Notes: a model not told the origin generated them from the letters alone. 64,000 bases of DNA from a virus (IMGVR_UViG_2700988807_000001:1-64000); one strand, 5' to 3'. Numbered from the stretch's first letter, positions 42,742-64,000 are shown. Numbers and translations are program-made.

Positions 42742-42788
42742 CCTCTCTCCCACACACCTATATTTTGATCACCTATGAAGGGACCACC

Positions 42789-43004
42789 ATGAAGAAGCTG
42801 GGCATCGTTGCCGTCTCCACCACCGTAGGATTCGCCGCGGGAGTGTCGAGCGTGGGCTACATCATCACGAACAAGAAGATCATGAAGAAGGTCTTGATGG
42901 CATATTTCAAGACGATCGACTTCTCAATGACCGACGAACAGACTCGAGTTCTCGGAGAGCTAACTCAGCAGATGAAGTTGGCAAAGACCAAGAAGAAGCC
43001 CTAA
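42789..43004 (+). CDS. Small membrane-associated protein
   Basis: GAAGGGA RBS; MKKLGIVAVSTTVGFAAGV. Confidence 0.65.
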   Translation: MKKLGIVAVSTTVGFAAGVSSVGYIITNKKIMKKVLMAYFKTIDFSMTDEQTRVLGELTQQMKLAKTKKKP

Positions 43005-43049
43005 CCTCTCGTCTCCACGCGCCACACTCATATTTGAAAGGCTATACCT

Positions 43050-43229
43050 ATGCGCAAGGCAACGTTCGTCCTGTCCGCTCTCAGCTTCGTCACCTCCGTC
43101 GCGACCCTCGGGGTTCTCGCTTACGGAGCAAAGAAGGTCCACAACGATATTCAGGGGATTCGAGAAAAGGTCAACACCTCCATCGGCCAGTTCAAGAAGA
43201 CCCTCGTCAACTTCGACTTCTCCGTCTAA
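43050..43229 (+). CDS. Small membrane-associated protein (59 aa, not in ORF track)
   Basis: GAAAGG RBS; MRKATFVLSALSFVTSVATLGVLAYGAKKV... Confidence 0.65.
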   Translation: MRKATFVLSALSFVTSVATLGVLAYGAKKVHNDIQGIREKVNTSIGQFKKTLVNFDFSV

Positions 43230-43257
43230 CTCACCGATCCAACGAAAGGGTAAGAAC

Positions 43258-43539
43258 ATGAGCGCGTACAACTCCTTCAACGACTTCCTCGCCAACAACC
43301 CGCAGTGGATCATATTCATCAGCATCGCCCTTCCGTGGGTCGGTCTCATGATGCTGGTGATGTTCTTCGAGAAGGGACGGAAGAAGCACAAGGCGGTTCG
43401 TAAGGCTTACAAGGCCGGCGAACTCCAGAAGCGCCCGAGCCGTCGCACCAACCTCACAGTCGTCGAGCCCGTGTCGAATCGTAAGGACGTTCCGTCCGAC
43501 TACTTCGATCGTGTCAACGAATTCCGAGCAAGCCTCTAA
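43258..43539 (+). CDS. Small membrane protein
   Basis: One TM helix, basic tail. Confidence 0.65.
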   Translation: MSAYNSFNDFLANNPQWIIFISIALPWVGLMMLVMFFEKGRKKHKAVRKAYKAGELQKRPSRRTNLTVVEPVSNRKDVPSDYFDRVNEFRASL

Positions 43540-43557
43540 GAAAGGTTTTCGCCTTCA

Positions 43558-43782
43558 ATGCTTTCGTCTACCATCAGCGTTCTCTGGGATATTCTTCTCG
43601 TCTTCTTGCTGATCATCGGTATCATCATCGTGATCGGACTTGTCACTGGCTGGATGGCTGTCGTGTGGACCTACGTCACGCGATTCGTCAATGCCTATCG
43701 TCGGGCCTCGCGTGAGCTAGAAGCTGCCGAGGAGCTCGAAAGGGTCGATGACGACGATCCCTACGGCAAGCTTGTCGACTGA
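43558..43782 (+). CDS. Small membrane protein
   Basis: Long hydrophobic N-terminus. Confidence 0.65.
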   Translation: MLSSTISVLWDILLVFLLIIGIIIVIGLVTGWMAVVWTYVTRFVNAYRRASRELEAAEELERVDDDDPYGKLVD

Positions 43783-43822
43783 CCAAATCTATCAACCATA
43801 TCTGAAACAACTCTGGAGAATC

Positions 43823-61811: not shown

Positions 61812-62095
61812 TGACTGACACGCTATATCTCAAAGAGAAGCTCGTCGAGGGTGAGACCAAGTACTCGTGGTTCTACTCGACGAACTCCATGAGCGCCGAG
61901 TCTACCGACTTCACGAACGAAGACAAGATGATCGAACACTTCGTCGGGGTCTTTCGCGAAGAGCTCTTTGATGAGACGAAACTCGTTGTCGAAGCAACTG
62001 AGGCGCAGCGAGACAAGATTCTCGTCGAGTACCAGAAGCAATTCGGCGTTGTCGATATTCCAACCGAGACCGAACCACCAGCCGACCCAACCTAA
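61808..62095 (+). CDS. YegP/DUF1508-like paralog 6 (divergent)
   Basis: TLYLK...YSWFYST...S..F...MIEH.VGVF...RDKI..EY..QF. Confidence 0.58.
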   Translation: MMTDTLYLKEKLVEGETKYSWFYSTNSMSAESTDFTNEDKMIEHFVGVFREELFDETKLVVEATEAQRDKILVEYQKQFGVVDIPTETEPPADPT

Positions 62096-62107
62096 GGAGT
62101 TAGATGC

Positions 62108-62392
62108 ATGATCGCCATCAGACCGCGTCACCCGGACAAGCTATATTTCGAGTCGATGTCGGTCGAAGGCATCGTGCATTATCGCTGGGTTCTCAAGTCG
62201 ACTCACGACGATGACGAACTCCCTCTCGTCACGACCCCGTTCACCTACACGTGCAAAGAATCCGCCATCCACAACGGCGTTGTTCTTTTCGGTTGCTTAC
62301 TTATAGAAGGCATCATCGACGTGGCAGATCCCGATATTCGTGAGGAGCTGCTAGAAGAATGTCGCCTCAACCCCGACCTAACGAAAGGCTAG
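62108..62392 (+). CDS. YegP/DUF1508-like paralog 7
   Basis: HPDKLYFE...YRWVLKST...Y..KESAIHN...LFG. Confidence 0.68.
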   Translation: MIAIRPRHPDKLYFESMSVEGIVHYRWVLKSTHDDDELPLVTTPFTYTCKESAIHNGVVLFGCLLIEGIIDVADPDIREELLEECRLNPDLTKG

Positions 62393-62396
62393 ATCT

Positions 62397-63032
62397 ATGT
62401 GGTGGTCTATCTTCTTGGCCGTGATTGGTGTCACAGGCCTATATTTGACAACCCAAAAGAACGTTCTCGGATTCGCGATCGGTGTCGGCGTGCAGATCCT
62501 TTGGGTCGTCTACGCTCTGGCGACTGGTCAGTACGGTTTCATCCTCAGCGCTTTGGCTTACGGTGCGGTCAACATCATCGGACTGCGTAAGTGGACGAAG
62601 GACGCACGAGCCGAAAGCTCAGGAAAGGCCGAAGAGGCCATGAAAGCTCTTGGGGTGCGCTTCCTATATTTCACTGGCGTCAACCCTGAGTACCCTCCGC
62701 ACTACTGGGAGCTCAAGACTGCGTACGGCAACGTCGTTCAGCAGAGCCTCAGCTACCAGGACGAGATGGGCGCCATCAAGAACGCCGTGGCCGTCTTCGG
62801 CGACAAGCTGTTCGACTCGAACTACATCGTCATCGATACGAGCCCGGATATTCTCGCCAAGCTCAGGCGCGAGTACCACACGTCTCGGGAGATCCATGGT
62901 AGTCGACAGTCATATCCAGCCGAAGCAATGCGTATGTCTTCCCTACCGCCCATGCCCGACCCCTACCATTCCATGCAACCGACCCGTGTTCACCACAACC
63001 CCCGACCCGTTAACTGGGTCACTGGAGACTGA
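62397..63032 (+). CDS. 3-TM (PnuC/SemiSWEET-like) domain fused to a YegP/DUF1508-like domain
   Basis: GLYL..QK...GF......QILW..YA...GQYGF membrane domain, then FLYF...HYWELKT..G..V..S..Y...GAIKN...VFG. Confidence 0.62.
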   Translation: MWWSIFLAVIGVTGLYLTTQKNVLGFAIGVGVQILWVVYALATGQYGFILSALAYGAVNIIGLRKWTKDARAESSGKAEEAMKALGVRFLYFTGVNPEYPPHYWELKTAYGNVVQQSLSYQDEMGAIKNAVAVFGDKLFDSNYIVIDTSPDILAKLRREYHTSREIHGSRQSYPAEAMRMSSLPPMPDPYHSMQPTRVHHNPRPVNWVTGD

Positions 63033-63038
63033 TAAAAC

Positions 63039-63521
63039 GTGATCCTCATCGACATTCTGTTACTTGCGCTCTGGCTCTACGGCTTATATTTGTCGAGTCA
63101 GAGCCTGACATTCGGCTATGTGCTGACACTAACTGTGCCGGTCGCCTGGATCATCTACGAAGTATCAGAGGGTAGATACGGACTCGTAATCATGGTGGTT
63201 GCAGTCGGGAGCACCTACGCTTTAGGCGTGGCTTGTTGGCTCAAACGGAAACACTCTCGTCGACCGAAGCCGCCTCGCAAGCTATATTTCGTTGACGAAG
63301 ATGGCGCTATTCATTGGGAGTACCTATCTTCGGACGGGAAACTCATTCACGCGTCGAGAGATTTCTACAGCCCAAAGATTGCGGCTATCGATGCGGTCTT
63401 CTCGCTTGAGGGCGACTTTTCCCAAGACGACAGAGATCTTCACATCATCGGAAAACAAGAAGTCGTGGATCAGTTCTATCTAGAGAGTGTCCGACTTCGA
63501 GAAGACAGGAAAGATCTATGA
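63039..63521 (+). CDS. 3-TM domain fused to a YegP/DUF1508-like domain
   Basis: GLYL..Q...GY......W..Y....GRYGL, then RKLYFV...IHWEY.SSDGKLIHAS..F. Confidence 0.6.
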   Translation: MILIDILLLALWLYGLYLSSQSLTFGYVLTLTVPVAWIIYEVSEGRYGLVIMVVAVGSTYALGVACWLKRKHSRRPKPPRKLYFVDEDGAIHWEYLSSDGKLIHASRDFYSPKIAAIDAVFSLEGDFSQDDRDLHIIGKQEVVDQFYLESVRLREDRKDL

Positions 63522-63757
63522 CCCACTGGGAACTTATATTGGTCGGGATCTTGGTCGTCGGTCTTGTGTTGGCCAACTTCAAGAAGACACGAATGCTGGG
63601 GATGCTGATCAGCTTCTTCGCACCTCTGTTCCTGCTGTTCTACTTCTTGATTGACGGACGATACGAGCTCGTCAGCTATCTCCTCACATTCATGCTCACC
63701 TATACTCTGCTCCCATATATGTGGGGTAAGAACGAAAAGAAAGAAGAAACTAAGTGA
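63518..63757 (+). CDS. Stand-alone 3-TM membrane protein, paralog of the two preceding N-domains
   Basis: GLVL...K....G......Y....GRYEL. Confidence 0.6.
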   Translation: MTHWELILVGILVVGLVLANFKKTRMLGMLISFFAPLFLLFYFLIDGRYELVSYLLTFMLTYTLLPYMWGKNEKKEETK

Positions 63758-64000
63758 TCGGCAACTCCAACATCACGCTTCTCAGCGGATTCGATTTCGA
63801 TCTCATTCAGGAAGTCGGCTCGGACCAGATCATCTGTCAGGCGGCACGAGTTTCGACCAAGGGTGCTGACGCTTTCGGCACAGACGAGTCTGCCGGCCTG
63901 ATGAACTTCCTCATGTCCGGACGACATGGCTCTCCGTTCGAGCACGGTCTGATGAGCTTCCGAATCACGGCGCCCATATTCGTGTGGCGTGAGTTCATGC
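63754..64000 (+). CDS. thyX: Flavin-dependent thymidylate synthase ThyX (5' part, truncated by window end)
   Basis: Manual translation from GTG 63754: ...ICQAARVSTKG...LMNFLM..RHGSPFEH..MSFRITAPIFVWREFM. Confidence 0.85.
   Translation, partial: MIGNSNITLLSGFDFDLIQEVGSDQIICQAARVSTKGADAFGTDESAGLMNFLMSGRHGSPFEHGLMSFRITAPIFVWREFM

Follow-up and report, generated by a model that had tools for sequence, protein, structure and literature searches.

Why should a phage genome of 53.4% GC carry one AT-only pentamer, ATATT, again and again on one strand and hardly ever on the other? The question is raised by the right-hand part of IMGVR_UViG_2700988807_000001:1-64000, a 64,000-nucleotide stretch of viral DNA (the window, throughout), where a first-pass annotation had remarked on the word from 42750 to 64000 and proposed that a selected, strand-specific signal is overlaid on the coding sequence. 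The window makes up the first 64 kb of a phage genome that forms a single contig of 76,797 bp and is called Pepy6 (Rhodococcus phage ReqiPepy6) in the comparisons below; ReqiPepy6 is placed in cluster CC with R. equi as host, according to the available text of PMC13313380 (Table 1). Every called gene lies on the + strand. The core of that proposal is borne out here: the excess survives the null models, synonymous positions within the sites are conserved, amino-acid replacements create sites, and the enrichment recurs in distant relatives. As to what reads the word, we tentatively favor an RNA polymerase that the phage itself encodes.

ATATT is gained on the coding strand

Between 42750 and 64000 the + strand holds 88 copies of ATATT and none of its reverse complement, AATAT. 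The corresponding counts are 82 and 0 for 44000-64000, 139 and 5 for the whole window, and 176 and 6 for the 76,797-bp genome. The initial estimate by eye of about 80 copies in 44-64 kb was therefore close, a site lies within 2 nt of every one of the ten positions named at the time (10/10), and the guess of about ten from base composition agrees with a zero-order expectation of about 11 for the same 20 kb. More demanding nulls were built from 200 shuffles each, of synonymous codons or of third codon positions, per gene or genome-wide, over a gene set of 104 calls (71,088 nt). The third-position shuffle swaps bases only within the same amino acid, the same first two bases and the same following base; it keeps amino acids, codon usage and all dinucleotides. 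All shuffles leave non-coding DNA as it is, so the tests are conservative.

Against the 88 copies observed in 42750-64000, the per-gene synonymous-codon shuffle yields 26.4 +/- 3.3 (z 18.5; maximum 37), the per-gene third-position shuffle 49.5 +/- 3.3 (z 11.8; maximum 58), and the genome-wide third-position shuffle 25.2 +/- 3.2 (z 19.8; maximum 32). Taking all nulls together, about 23-50 copies are expected, with z from 12 to 22; a null aware of both codons and dinucleotides does not reproduce the count (z 11.8-19.8). The same holds across the genome, where synonymous-codon shuffles give 60-67 copies and the third-position shuffle 98 (per gene) or 62 (genome-wide), placing the observed 176 at z 15-23 over the codon and dinucleotide nulls with no shuffle close. 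ATATT is the largest outlier among all 5-mers (z 22.7 and 15.7), and the runners-up are words that overlap it. As had been noted, the motif occurs in differing frames and between genes: 18 of the 176 sites are in frame 0, 78 in frame 1, 50 in frame 2 and 30 in non-coding DNA.

The rarity of AATAT is likewise real, at 6 copies genome-wide against about 18 expected, and some other AT-only words are equally depleted in Pepy6. Four of the six copies are the palindrome AATATT overlapping a forward site (30266, 34205, 34334, 38417), which leaves only two free-standing reverse copies (24505; genome 69756). The strand asymmetry is chiefly a gain of the forward word.

A nine-nucleotide motif with a spacing rule

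After correction for codon phase, the flanks deviate at -2 (C), -1 (not A), +5 (C or T) and +6 (not A), and no other position from -16 to +21 around ATATT does so. The motif is thus about 9 nt long, C-B-ATATT-Y-B (B, not A; Y, C or T), and its flank preferences are present in all three reading frames and in non-coding DNA. Against genome-wide shuffles the enrichment is 2.3-3.6 fold for CATATT, GATATT and TATATT and about 3 fold for ATATTC and ATATTT; AATATT, ATATTA and ATATTG stay near the null. The 20 nt upstream of sites are slightly richer in GC (0.58-0.60 vs 0.53). No hairpin was found up- or downstream of sites (five windows, p 0.2-0.99), and the predicted probability of being unpaired is not higher for ATATT than for other AT-only words (0.64 vs 0.61). 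Readings as an intrinsic-terminator-like element or an N4-like hairpin promoter are ruled out by the lack of both hairpin and extra unpairing.

The sites also keep their distance from one another. In the dense region from 39.4 to 73.5 kb (131 sites) none of the 130 spacings is shorter than 60 nt, where an exponential distribution expects 27, and none of 2000 random placements reached a minimum spacing of at least 44. Four phages were also pooled: Pepy6 and three relatives introduced below, Secretariat, DrGrey and Paella. Together they have no spacing of 0-20 nt, 6 of 20-40 nt and 8 of 40-60 nt, against 38, 36 and 34 extrapolated from the tail of the distribution (14 vs 108 under 60 nt); from 80 nt up, counts are at or above expectation. 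The coefficient of variation of spacing is 0.80 vs 0.99. The rule is short-range repulsion, not regular phasing, around a mean density in the enriched domain of about one site per 250 bases.

A compact, asymmetric motif of this kind, tied in orientation to transcription and limited to certain domains, with an exclusion of 60-80 nt that reads like a footprint, might be the target of a phage DNA-binding protein. Such a protein, perhaps acting through the helix-turn-helix (HTH) domains of the polymerase described below, would use the sites for orientation-dependent pausing, as roadblocks, for re-loading, or in organizing the DNA, much like the stoperators of mycobacteriophage L5; a lineage-specific reader would be implied. 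We consider this unlikely. Besides the polymerase no repressor-like or other candidate protein was identified, and neither a repressor nor an integrase turned up among the proteins scanned, which represent part of the open reading frames (ORFs). A total of 176 sites, mostly in ORFs, is several-fold above the number of stoperators in phage L5, and a slowing of transcription every 250 nt has no evident functional logic.

The sites are kept by selection

Rhodococcus phage ReqiPoco6, whose polymerase gene is 93% identical to that of Pepy6 in DNA, carries 179 forward and 8 reverse copies distributed as in Pepy6. It keeps 106 of 142 aligned Pepy6 sites (74.6%), against a background retention between the two genomes of 50.9% for all 5-mers and 53% for 5-mers with four A/T. 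Third-codon-position identity is 0.79-0.89 within the motif vs 0.717 overall, and the rise is confined to about -3 to +8. ATATT sites are kept by selection, above the synonymous background. Turnover is balanced, in that 36 Pepy6 sites are altered in ReqiPoco6 and 40 ReqiPoco6 sites align to non-sites. Over a longer distance, the helicase-DNA polymerase fusion gene of Pepy6 (Table 1) and its ortholog in Gordonia phage Secretariat (76% protein identity) have 13 sites each, of which six are common in alignment column and frame. Several of the private sites arise from amino-acid changes, e.g. DV to DI (V to I).

It could be argued that the word has no function and is a relic, or a sink, of context-dependent mutation as an AT-rich ancestral genome drifted toward its GC-rich hosts. 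For the lineage a move out of low-GC Firmicutes has been proposed, with amelioration still under way (bioRxiv 10.1101/842583, available text), and the commonest change at a site is a single transition, ACATT to or from ATATT. However, such drift would have to retain one of 32 AT-only words, on one strand only, together with frame-independent flanks, an exclusion of close pairs, gains that balance losses, sites created by amino-acid change, and an excess with domain limits. We find it extremely improbable.

The excess follows the phage lineage

Relatives that carry the same polymerase were compared using dinucleotide-preserving shuffles, mostly on 50-kb parts, with SheRa, FP_oengus and Pepy6 taken whole. 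In all seven phages tested outside Lactococcus, ATATT ranks first in enrichment among the 32 AT-only 5-mers; the first-pass annotation had named such a comparison as a check on its claim. The hosts are Rhodococcus (Pepy6, 176 observed vs 72 expected), Gordonia (Secretariat, 113 vs 49), Streptomyces (DrGrey, 95 vs 42; SheRa, 25 vs 10), Arthrobacter (Paella, 187 vs 120; Gordon, 64 vs 39) and the Firmicute Faecalibacterium (FP_oengus, 106 vs 72). In the AT-rich Lactococcus phage P092 the word ranks 31 of 32 and shows no real excess (215 vs 196); its chance density there, 4.3 per kb, equals the density held by selection in Pepy6. No alternative motif stood out in Gordon, P092 or the SheRa early block.

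Two controls showed no excess. ReqiPine5, which infects the same host species but is unrelated and lacks the polymerase, has 4 copies vs 3.0 expected. In an actinobacterial chromosome of 66% GC (G031; first 400 kb, next to dnaA), which serves as a proxy for the host and is not the host itself, the counts were 33 and 36, and the gene-sense counts 14 and 19 vs nulls of 13.4 and 20.8. Because the excess is lineage-specific and appears neither in the same-host phage nor in the host-type chromosome, the reader of the element is most likely phage-encoded and common to the supercluster.

The reverse word behaves less uniformly. Among the 32 words AATAT ranks third in depletion in Pepy6, second in Secretariat and third in DrGrey, and it does not depart from expectation in the other five of the eight phages (SheRa, Paella, FP_oengus, Gordon and P092). 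This suggests harm from AATAT in the densest genomes only. FP_oengus has just two minus-strand genes (1 and 2; 3 and 2 sites), too few for a comparison of orientations.

A further contig also carries the word in number. In 20.7 kb of a 50.6-kb contig from a Marmoricola metagenome-assembled genome (49% GC), ATATT occurs 51 times and AATAT 14 times; its thymidylate synthase is 67% identical to that of the phage, and the contig is probably a related phage binned with a bacterium. It was the one locus that a search for host loci with the thymidylate synthase gene gave. We found no description of the ATATT bias in the published literature searched; the original genome paper (Summer et al. 2011) lay outside that search and might mention the word or the cassettes described below. 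The available texts of bioRxiv 10.1101/842583 and PMC13313380, both on this phage group, make no mention of it.

Enriched domains begin and end at gene-class borders

Block expectations were taken from genome-wide shuffles, and codon-aware nulls for domains were run for Pepy6 and SheRa only. The enrichment had been described as a property of the early and replication arm, with a sparser late arm. This needs correcting: the fold excess in the tail genes is equally large (30 vs 6.7, against 123 vs 36 in the replication and other genes). What lacks an excess is a stretch of about 27.5 kb that runs from 73.5 kb through the genome ends to 24.3 kb, along with, to a lesser degree, the block of earliest genes (Table 1). 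The series begins just past the capsid gene and runs to a last site at 73520, which leaves 23 nt to the start codon of the 904-aa polymerase gene. A terminator scan of 21-41 kb found no mark at the capsid/tail border.

SheRa, DrGrey and Secretariat show the same onset immediately past the capsid gene. At the other end, the sites of DrGrey and Secretariat continue up to their orthologs of the 904-aa gene, and those of SheRa give out about 1 kb earlier. Which blocks are enriched varies. DrGrey has the excess in early and tail blocks alike; SheRa has it in the tail block (22 vs 6), with 2 vs 1.6 in its 16.6-kb early block and no site in the DNA polymerase gene; in FP_oengus it occupies the early/replication block, including 15 sites in the DNA polymerase gene, and does not extend to the tail block. 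Direct counts in Pepy6 and FP_oengus gave no site within the capsid gene, and in SheRa, DrGrey and Secretariat that gene has no extended-form site. For Pepy6 the first-pass annotation had seen no copy in the capsid or major tail genes. As a count this is right (no site in the capsid gene or the first major tail gene, one in the second). By itself it is no sign of avoidance, for the nulls expect only 0.6, 0.24 and 0.78; fewer than one site is expected in each of the capsid, major tail and polymerase genes. Nor do the late genes in general show avoidance, since the non-enriched block with the polymerase gene stands at 11 vs 9.9, and at 6 vs 2.8 for the full motif, not below the null.

Such limits bear on the suggestion, made at the outset, that the word marks primase starts. 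Lagging-strand primers would begin at ATATT on the + strand, laid down by an unrecognized primase or by the two-barrel polymerase serving as primase to the helicase-PolB fusion. One strand alone would then matter, and the fixed pyrimidine 3' of the word recalls the cryptic nucleotide that known primase sites carry. The 1295-aa "primase/polymerase" (52374-56261) has matches only to the helicase (D5/SF3) half of primase-helicase profiles and to a DNA polymerase; no primase catalytic domain was recognized in the replication block (Pfam, PHROGs), three conserved upstream genes are without assignment, and the 300-aa protein upstream of the polymerase matched no named family (ESM Atlas). In the available text of bioRxiv 10.1101/2020.03.07.982082, crAss gp66 and QDE-1 transcribe single-stranded DNA well. 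The agreement between the chance density of P092 and the selected density of Pepy6 would also be accommodated. However, replication spans the whole chromosome, yet some 27.5 kb have no excess, as do the SheRa early block with its empty DNA polymerase gene and the FP_oengus tail block, and in four phages the limits coincide with borders between gene classes. With the excess restricted to gene-class blocks, primase starts fit poorly, and we think them quite improbable.

A second early suggestion was decay of early mRNA in the manner of T4 RegB. More broadly, AUAUU in mRNA could be a cleavage or decay site for a phage or host endoribonuclease; site-rich messages would turn over fast, and site-free ones, from the polymerase-to-capsid block and the major tail genes, would persist. 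That the sense strand alone would matter fits the neutral reverse copies in five of eight phages, and the abruptness with which the series sets in past the capsid gene, seen in four phages, suits a device for lowering expression. The near-empty major tail genes (0 and 1 in Pepy6; 0 and 0 in SheRa), the uniform placement of sites in genes with some enrichment between cistrons, and the high predicted unpaired probability of 0.64 point the same way. The enterobacterial RNase E consensus, R-N↓W-U-U, would fit AUAUU. The mycobacterial enzyme differs in preference, cutting 5' of cytidine at RN↓CNU (available text of PMC10641625), and Rhodococcus and Gordonia belong to the same order. A host enzyme is unlikely because the Faecalibacterium phage shares the excess and host-type genes are neither enriched nor depleted, and no phage RNase was recognizable among the proteins scanned (Pfam, PHROGs). 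The site-free block is not below its null, ATATT is no more unpaired than other AT-only words, and the exclusion under 60 nt has no obvious cause at the level of RNA. The earliest genes, moreover, are not enriched (11 vs 7.5) and the late tail genes are (30 vs 6.7), so the RegB-like version fits poorly. We regard an action on RNA as unlikely.

The earliest block is crowded with a promoter-like repeat instead. Fourteen cassettes of about 55-75 nt, each conserved from about -30 to +25 round a perfect TATAAT, lie at 38885-42611, 46317-46393, 48414-48463 and 48740-48816. Most are followed by a ribosome-binding site and ATG, and they are a probable family of early promoters with leaders; the early regions of DrGrey, Secretariat and Gordon open with similar TATAAT clusters. 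ATATT itself has A and T at the -11/-7 spacing of a minimal -10 element, and might thus form weak sense promoters or sigma-dependent pauses for the host holoenzyme. The 60-80 nt exclusion resembles the holoenzyme footprint, the principal sigma factor is universal, so that host range is no obstacle, and a few intergenic sites have the C/A-rich lead-in of the cassettes. Against this, ATAAT is not enriched (26 vs 24.6, 14 of them in cassettes), T stands at -12 in just 30% of sites, no cassette flank beyond CC just upstream accompanies the sites, and neither the unrelated phage of the same host nor the host-type chromosome has the bias. Host -10 elements are in our judgment very improbable. A derivation of ATATT sites as degenerate cassettes was also tried and rejected: cassette weight scores (-32 to -13, +6 to +25) were no higher than in controls (p 0.19-0.57).

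A candidate reader and a proposed initiation element

All of these phages encode a candidate reader. The 904-aa protein at whose gene the series stops (Table 1) has a DFDGD catalytic loop at residues 518-522, a weak Pfam RdRP match, HTH matches at about 77-112 and 871-901, and membership in PHROG 4291. The segment LSGADFDGD is invariant in 9/9 aligned relatives, and tblastn finds the gene in 248 phage records, full-length in 247. Annotation in relatives reads "RNA-dependent RNA polymerase" or "HTH DNA-binding protein"; the ReqiPoco6 record calls the gene "similar to Lactococcus phage 1706 gp75 structural protein", and the 1706 record also says structural protein. HHpred gave the same assignment independently, with an HTH at both ends and the family limited to this phage supercluster (bioRxiv 10.1101/842583, available text). 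Enzymes of this class have no known promoter: that of YonO is undefined (PMC5467207), and for crAss gp66 no common promoter motif is reported in the available text of bioRxiv 10.1101/2020.03.07.982082.

We propose that ATATT may be a minimal sense-strand initiation element for the phage's own RNA polymerase, a reading to which we assign a probability of roughly 40%, its reader and mode of action being deduced from sequence. The prime candidate reader would be the 904-aa single-chain two-barrel enzyme. An HTH domain would dock on the short element, the AT-rich core would melt amid GC-rich DNA, and RNA synthesis would begin rightward at or just past the element. An element this small would imply weak starts in large number: spread over the tail and replication blocks at a rate of about one per 250 bp, and always pointing the same way as the genes, they would take the place of a few strong promoters. 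Sites closer than some 60-80 bp would occlude each other, and for this reason close pairs would not be kept. The polymerase-to-capsid block would be served by read-through from the upstream array across the joined ends, or by another promoter class.

Several observations are consistent with such an element. Its asymmetric form of about 9 nt fits what is expected of a single DNA-reading domain, and an HTH is of the right size. A bulky complex sitting on each site would account for the exclusion under 60 nt. The recognition helix of the N-terminal HTH reads ES(S/T)(V/F)R in the 8 motif-bearing phages and differs only in P092, which is also alone in having no excess. Domain limits appear to match transcription-type blocks rather than the whole chromosome, and the cassette-crowded block without an ATATT excess is complementary to the enriched domain, which we count in favor. 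Sites are also more frequent than expected 12-50 nt upstream of start codons (53 vs 29, 1.8-fold, in five phages pooled and seen in 4/5); Table 1 lists two intergenic examples. Oriented protein-loading sites, a third suggestion of the first-pass annotation, are compatible with the proposal, in which the polymerase would load at the sites.

A number of points weigh against an initiation element. At about 4 per kb the density is well above any described promoter set, and promoters would be expected to number from a few to tens per genome and to lie for the most part upstream of genes, whereas 146 of the 176 sites are in ORFs and are uniform along genes (KS p 0.35). No preference for a start nucleotide at a fixed distance downstream was seen. 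A promoter should make antisense copies harmful, and the depletion of AATAT is inconsistent (5/8 phages neutral). The most highly expressed genes lie in the site-free block. Domains differ between relatives (SheRa tail only, FP_oengus early only), which a promoter explains only ad hoc. The 14 TATAAT cassettes could equally be the promoters of the phage polymerase, leaving ATATT another role. The correlation of HTH helix and motif rests on a single contrast, and P092 is also the most divergent sequence. Finally, no transcript studies of this phage group were found in the literature, and a check for RNA runs covering 52374-58373 turned up none.

A more far-reaching form of the proposal, which we hold to be doubtful, is that the elements make up a lawn of starts of about 9 bp in some 50 kb of coding sequence, read by the polymerase family's own HTH. 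On this account selection would have preserved the lawn during the passage of the lineage to GC-rich Actinobacteria, its earlier hosts having been AT-rich Firmicutes, where the word comes free.

Comparison with known systems

Promoters read by other phage polymerases offer the nearest precedents. The early consensus of the AR9 virion polymerase contains ATATT, and AR9 late promoters are AACA-N6-TA/G, with 13 inside ORFs (PMC5312081, available text); the virion polymerase of P23-45 uses a conserved AT-rich motif (bioRxiv 10.1101/2022.12.01.518664). Like ATATT, the promoters of the AR9, phiKZ and P23-45 polymerases are short or AT-rich and strand-specific, and they are read by phage two-barrel polymerases without a host sigma factor. 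They number tens per genome, are mostly intergenic and have been mapped to starts, whereas the 176 sites of Pepy6, 83% of them in ORFs, are known from sequence alone. The Pepy6 polymerase differs, too, in being of the single-chain YonO / crAss gp66 class.

L5 stoperators are 13 bp long, about 30 per genome and mostly intergenic, and are read by the HTH repressor of a temperate phage. They resemble ATATT in being many scattered, asymmetric copies oriented with transcription, but the Pepy6 element is 9 nt, present in 176 copies and mostly within ORFs. In T7, whose genes are unidirectional, CAGCAG (EcoP15I) too is a short word found nearly all on one strand, a bias read as loss of one orientation in escape from type III restriction. 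ATATT, in contrast, is gained 2.4-3 fold under codon-aware nulls, with flank and spacing rules, and restriction escape, which explains loss and not the observed gain of a forward word, was rejected. Chi and KOPS, too, are short words in excess and with a fixed orientation, and a translocating machine reads them; they are host-genome-wide and replication-skewed, while the ends of the phage DNA are free of sites, and the counts in the host-type chromosome do not support a host-wide polar motif. The target of T4 RegB is GGAG, a sequence unrelated to ATATT, in the ribosome-binding sites of early messages, and early ORFs of vaccinia are depleted of the early terminator TTTTTNT. GGAG and TTTTTNT are short sense-strand words that differ by temporal gene class, as ATATT does, but ATATT is enriched inside ORFs; the earliest block shows no such enrichment and the late tail genes do. 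In kind the element appears closest to non-canonical phage polymerase promoters and to dispersed arrays of oriented operators; its density, spacing rule and embedding in coding sequence would be new.

Other features of the window

Four copies of a 39-nt repeat (39659-39697, 40422-40460, 40798-40836, 41857-41895) stand just upstream of some TATAAT cassettes. Their ends are self-complementary, A-rich and T-rich, and resemble intrinsic terminators, so the earliest genes would form terminator-promoter-gene units. In the left arm, five tail-fibre/tail-spike genes have a common 177-nt 5' module with 64-75% identity (114-290, 1787-1963, 4448-4624, 5342-5518, 7337-7513), presumably a common N-terminal anchoring domain. 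Eight consecutive genes in 11686-19467 start with a conserved 66-nt module (62-85% identity), which suggests an N-terminal peptide common to a series of virion-associated proteins. Tandem repetition is seen in the tape measure gene, with four to five units of about 129 nt at 34127-34607. At 59615-63292 lies a small paralogous gene family in which a conserved 23-nt stretch near the 5' end carries one ATATT in each of five copies.

Table 1. Features and blocks of the Pepy6 genome. Positions beyond 64,000 are genome positions; paired counts are ATATT observed vs expected.
Feature	Position	Strand	Remarks
Polymerase, tail fibres, lysis, terminase, portal, capsid	73.5 kb through ends to 24 kb		12 vs 11
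Connectors, tail, tape measure, minor tail	24-38.1 kb		30 vs 6.7
Earliest small genes	38.1-42.7 kb		11 vs 7.5
Replication and other genes	42.7-73.5 kb		123 vs 36
Region of the finding	42750..64000	+	88 ATATT, 0 AATAT; part of dense domain reaching genome 73520
Tail-gene part of enriched domain	24443..38091	+	first site 24443 just past capsid gene (22118-24277)
Non-enriched block	1..24277	+	adjoins polymerase gene 73543-76257 via cohesive ends; together 11 vs 9.9
Earliest-gene block	38100..42700	+	little or no excess; filled with TATAAT cassettes
Helicase-DNA polymerase fusion gene	52374..56261	+	13 ATATT sites
904-aa RNA polymerase gene	genome 73543-76257 (outside window)	+	YonO / crAss gp66 / QDE-1 class, single-chain two-barrel
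Closest site pair in dense region	56120..56184	+	60 nt apart
Intergenic site	48031..48035	+	23 nt upstream of start codon; C/A-rich stretch precedes
Intergenic site	57590..57594	+	24 nt upstream of dCMP deaminase gene start (57614-58513)
TATAAT boxes	38920, 39415, 39951, 40224, 40489, 40861, 41192		
TATAAT boxes, continued	41315, 41570, 41921, 42570, 46352, 48449, 48775		
tRNA-Ala (anticodon AGC)	41206-41280		directly downstream of cassette 41192

Implications

With its spacing rule, its balanced turnover and its spread over more than 100 ORFs, the 9-nt signal shows unusually clearly that a viral genome can hold a second code, one that constrains synonymous sites and even amino acids. It would be relevant to phage recoding and engineering, to gene-calling, and to codon-usage studies that read low GC as poor adaptation only. 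If the lawn account is right, ATATT would be the first promoter defined for the YonO / crAss gp66 / QDE-1 class and would represent a new way to organize transcription. Late expression of the capsid block would then be the summed read-through of the whole array over the joined ends, and would be tied to circularization or concatemer formation. The question of what promoters this class uses becomes testable, with 248 records at hand, many of them from student-isolated phages of harmless hosts in Gordonia, Streptomyces and Arthrobacter. The answer would reach beyond these phages, since the eukaryotic RNAi polymerases and the crAss-like virion enzyme are related to the single-chain two-barrel polymerases.

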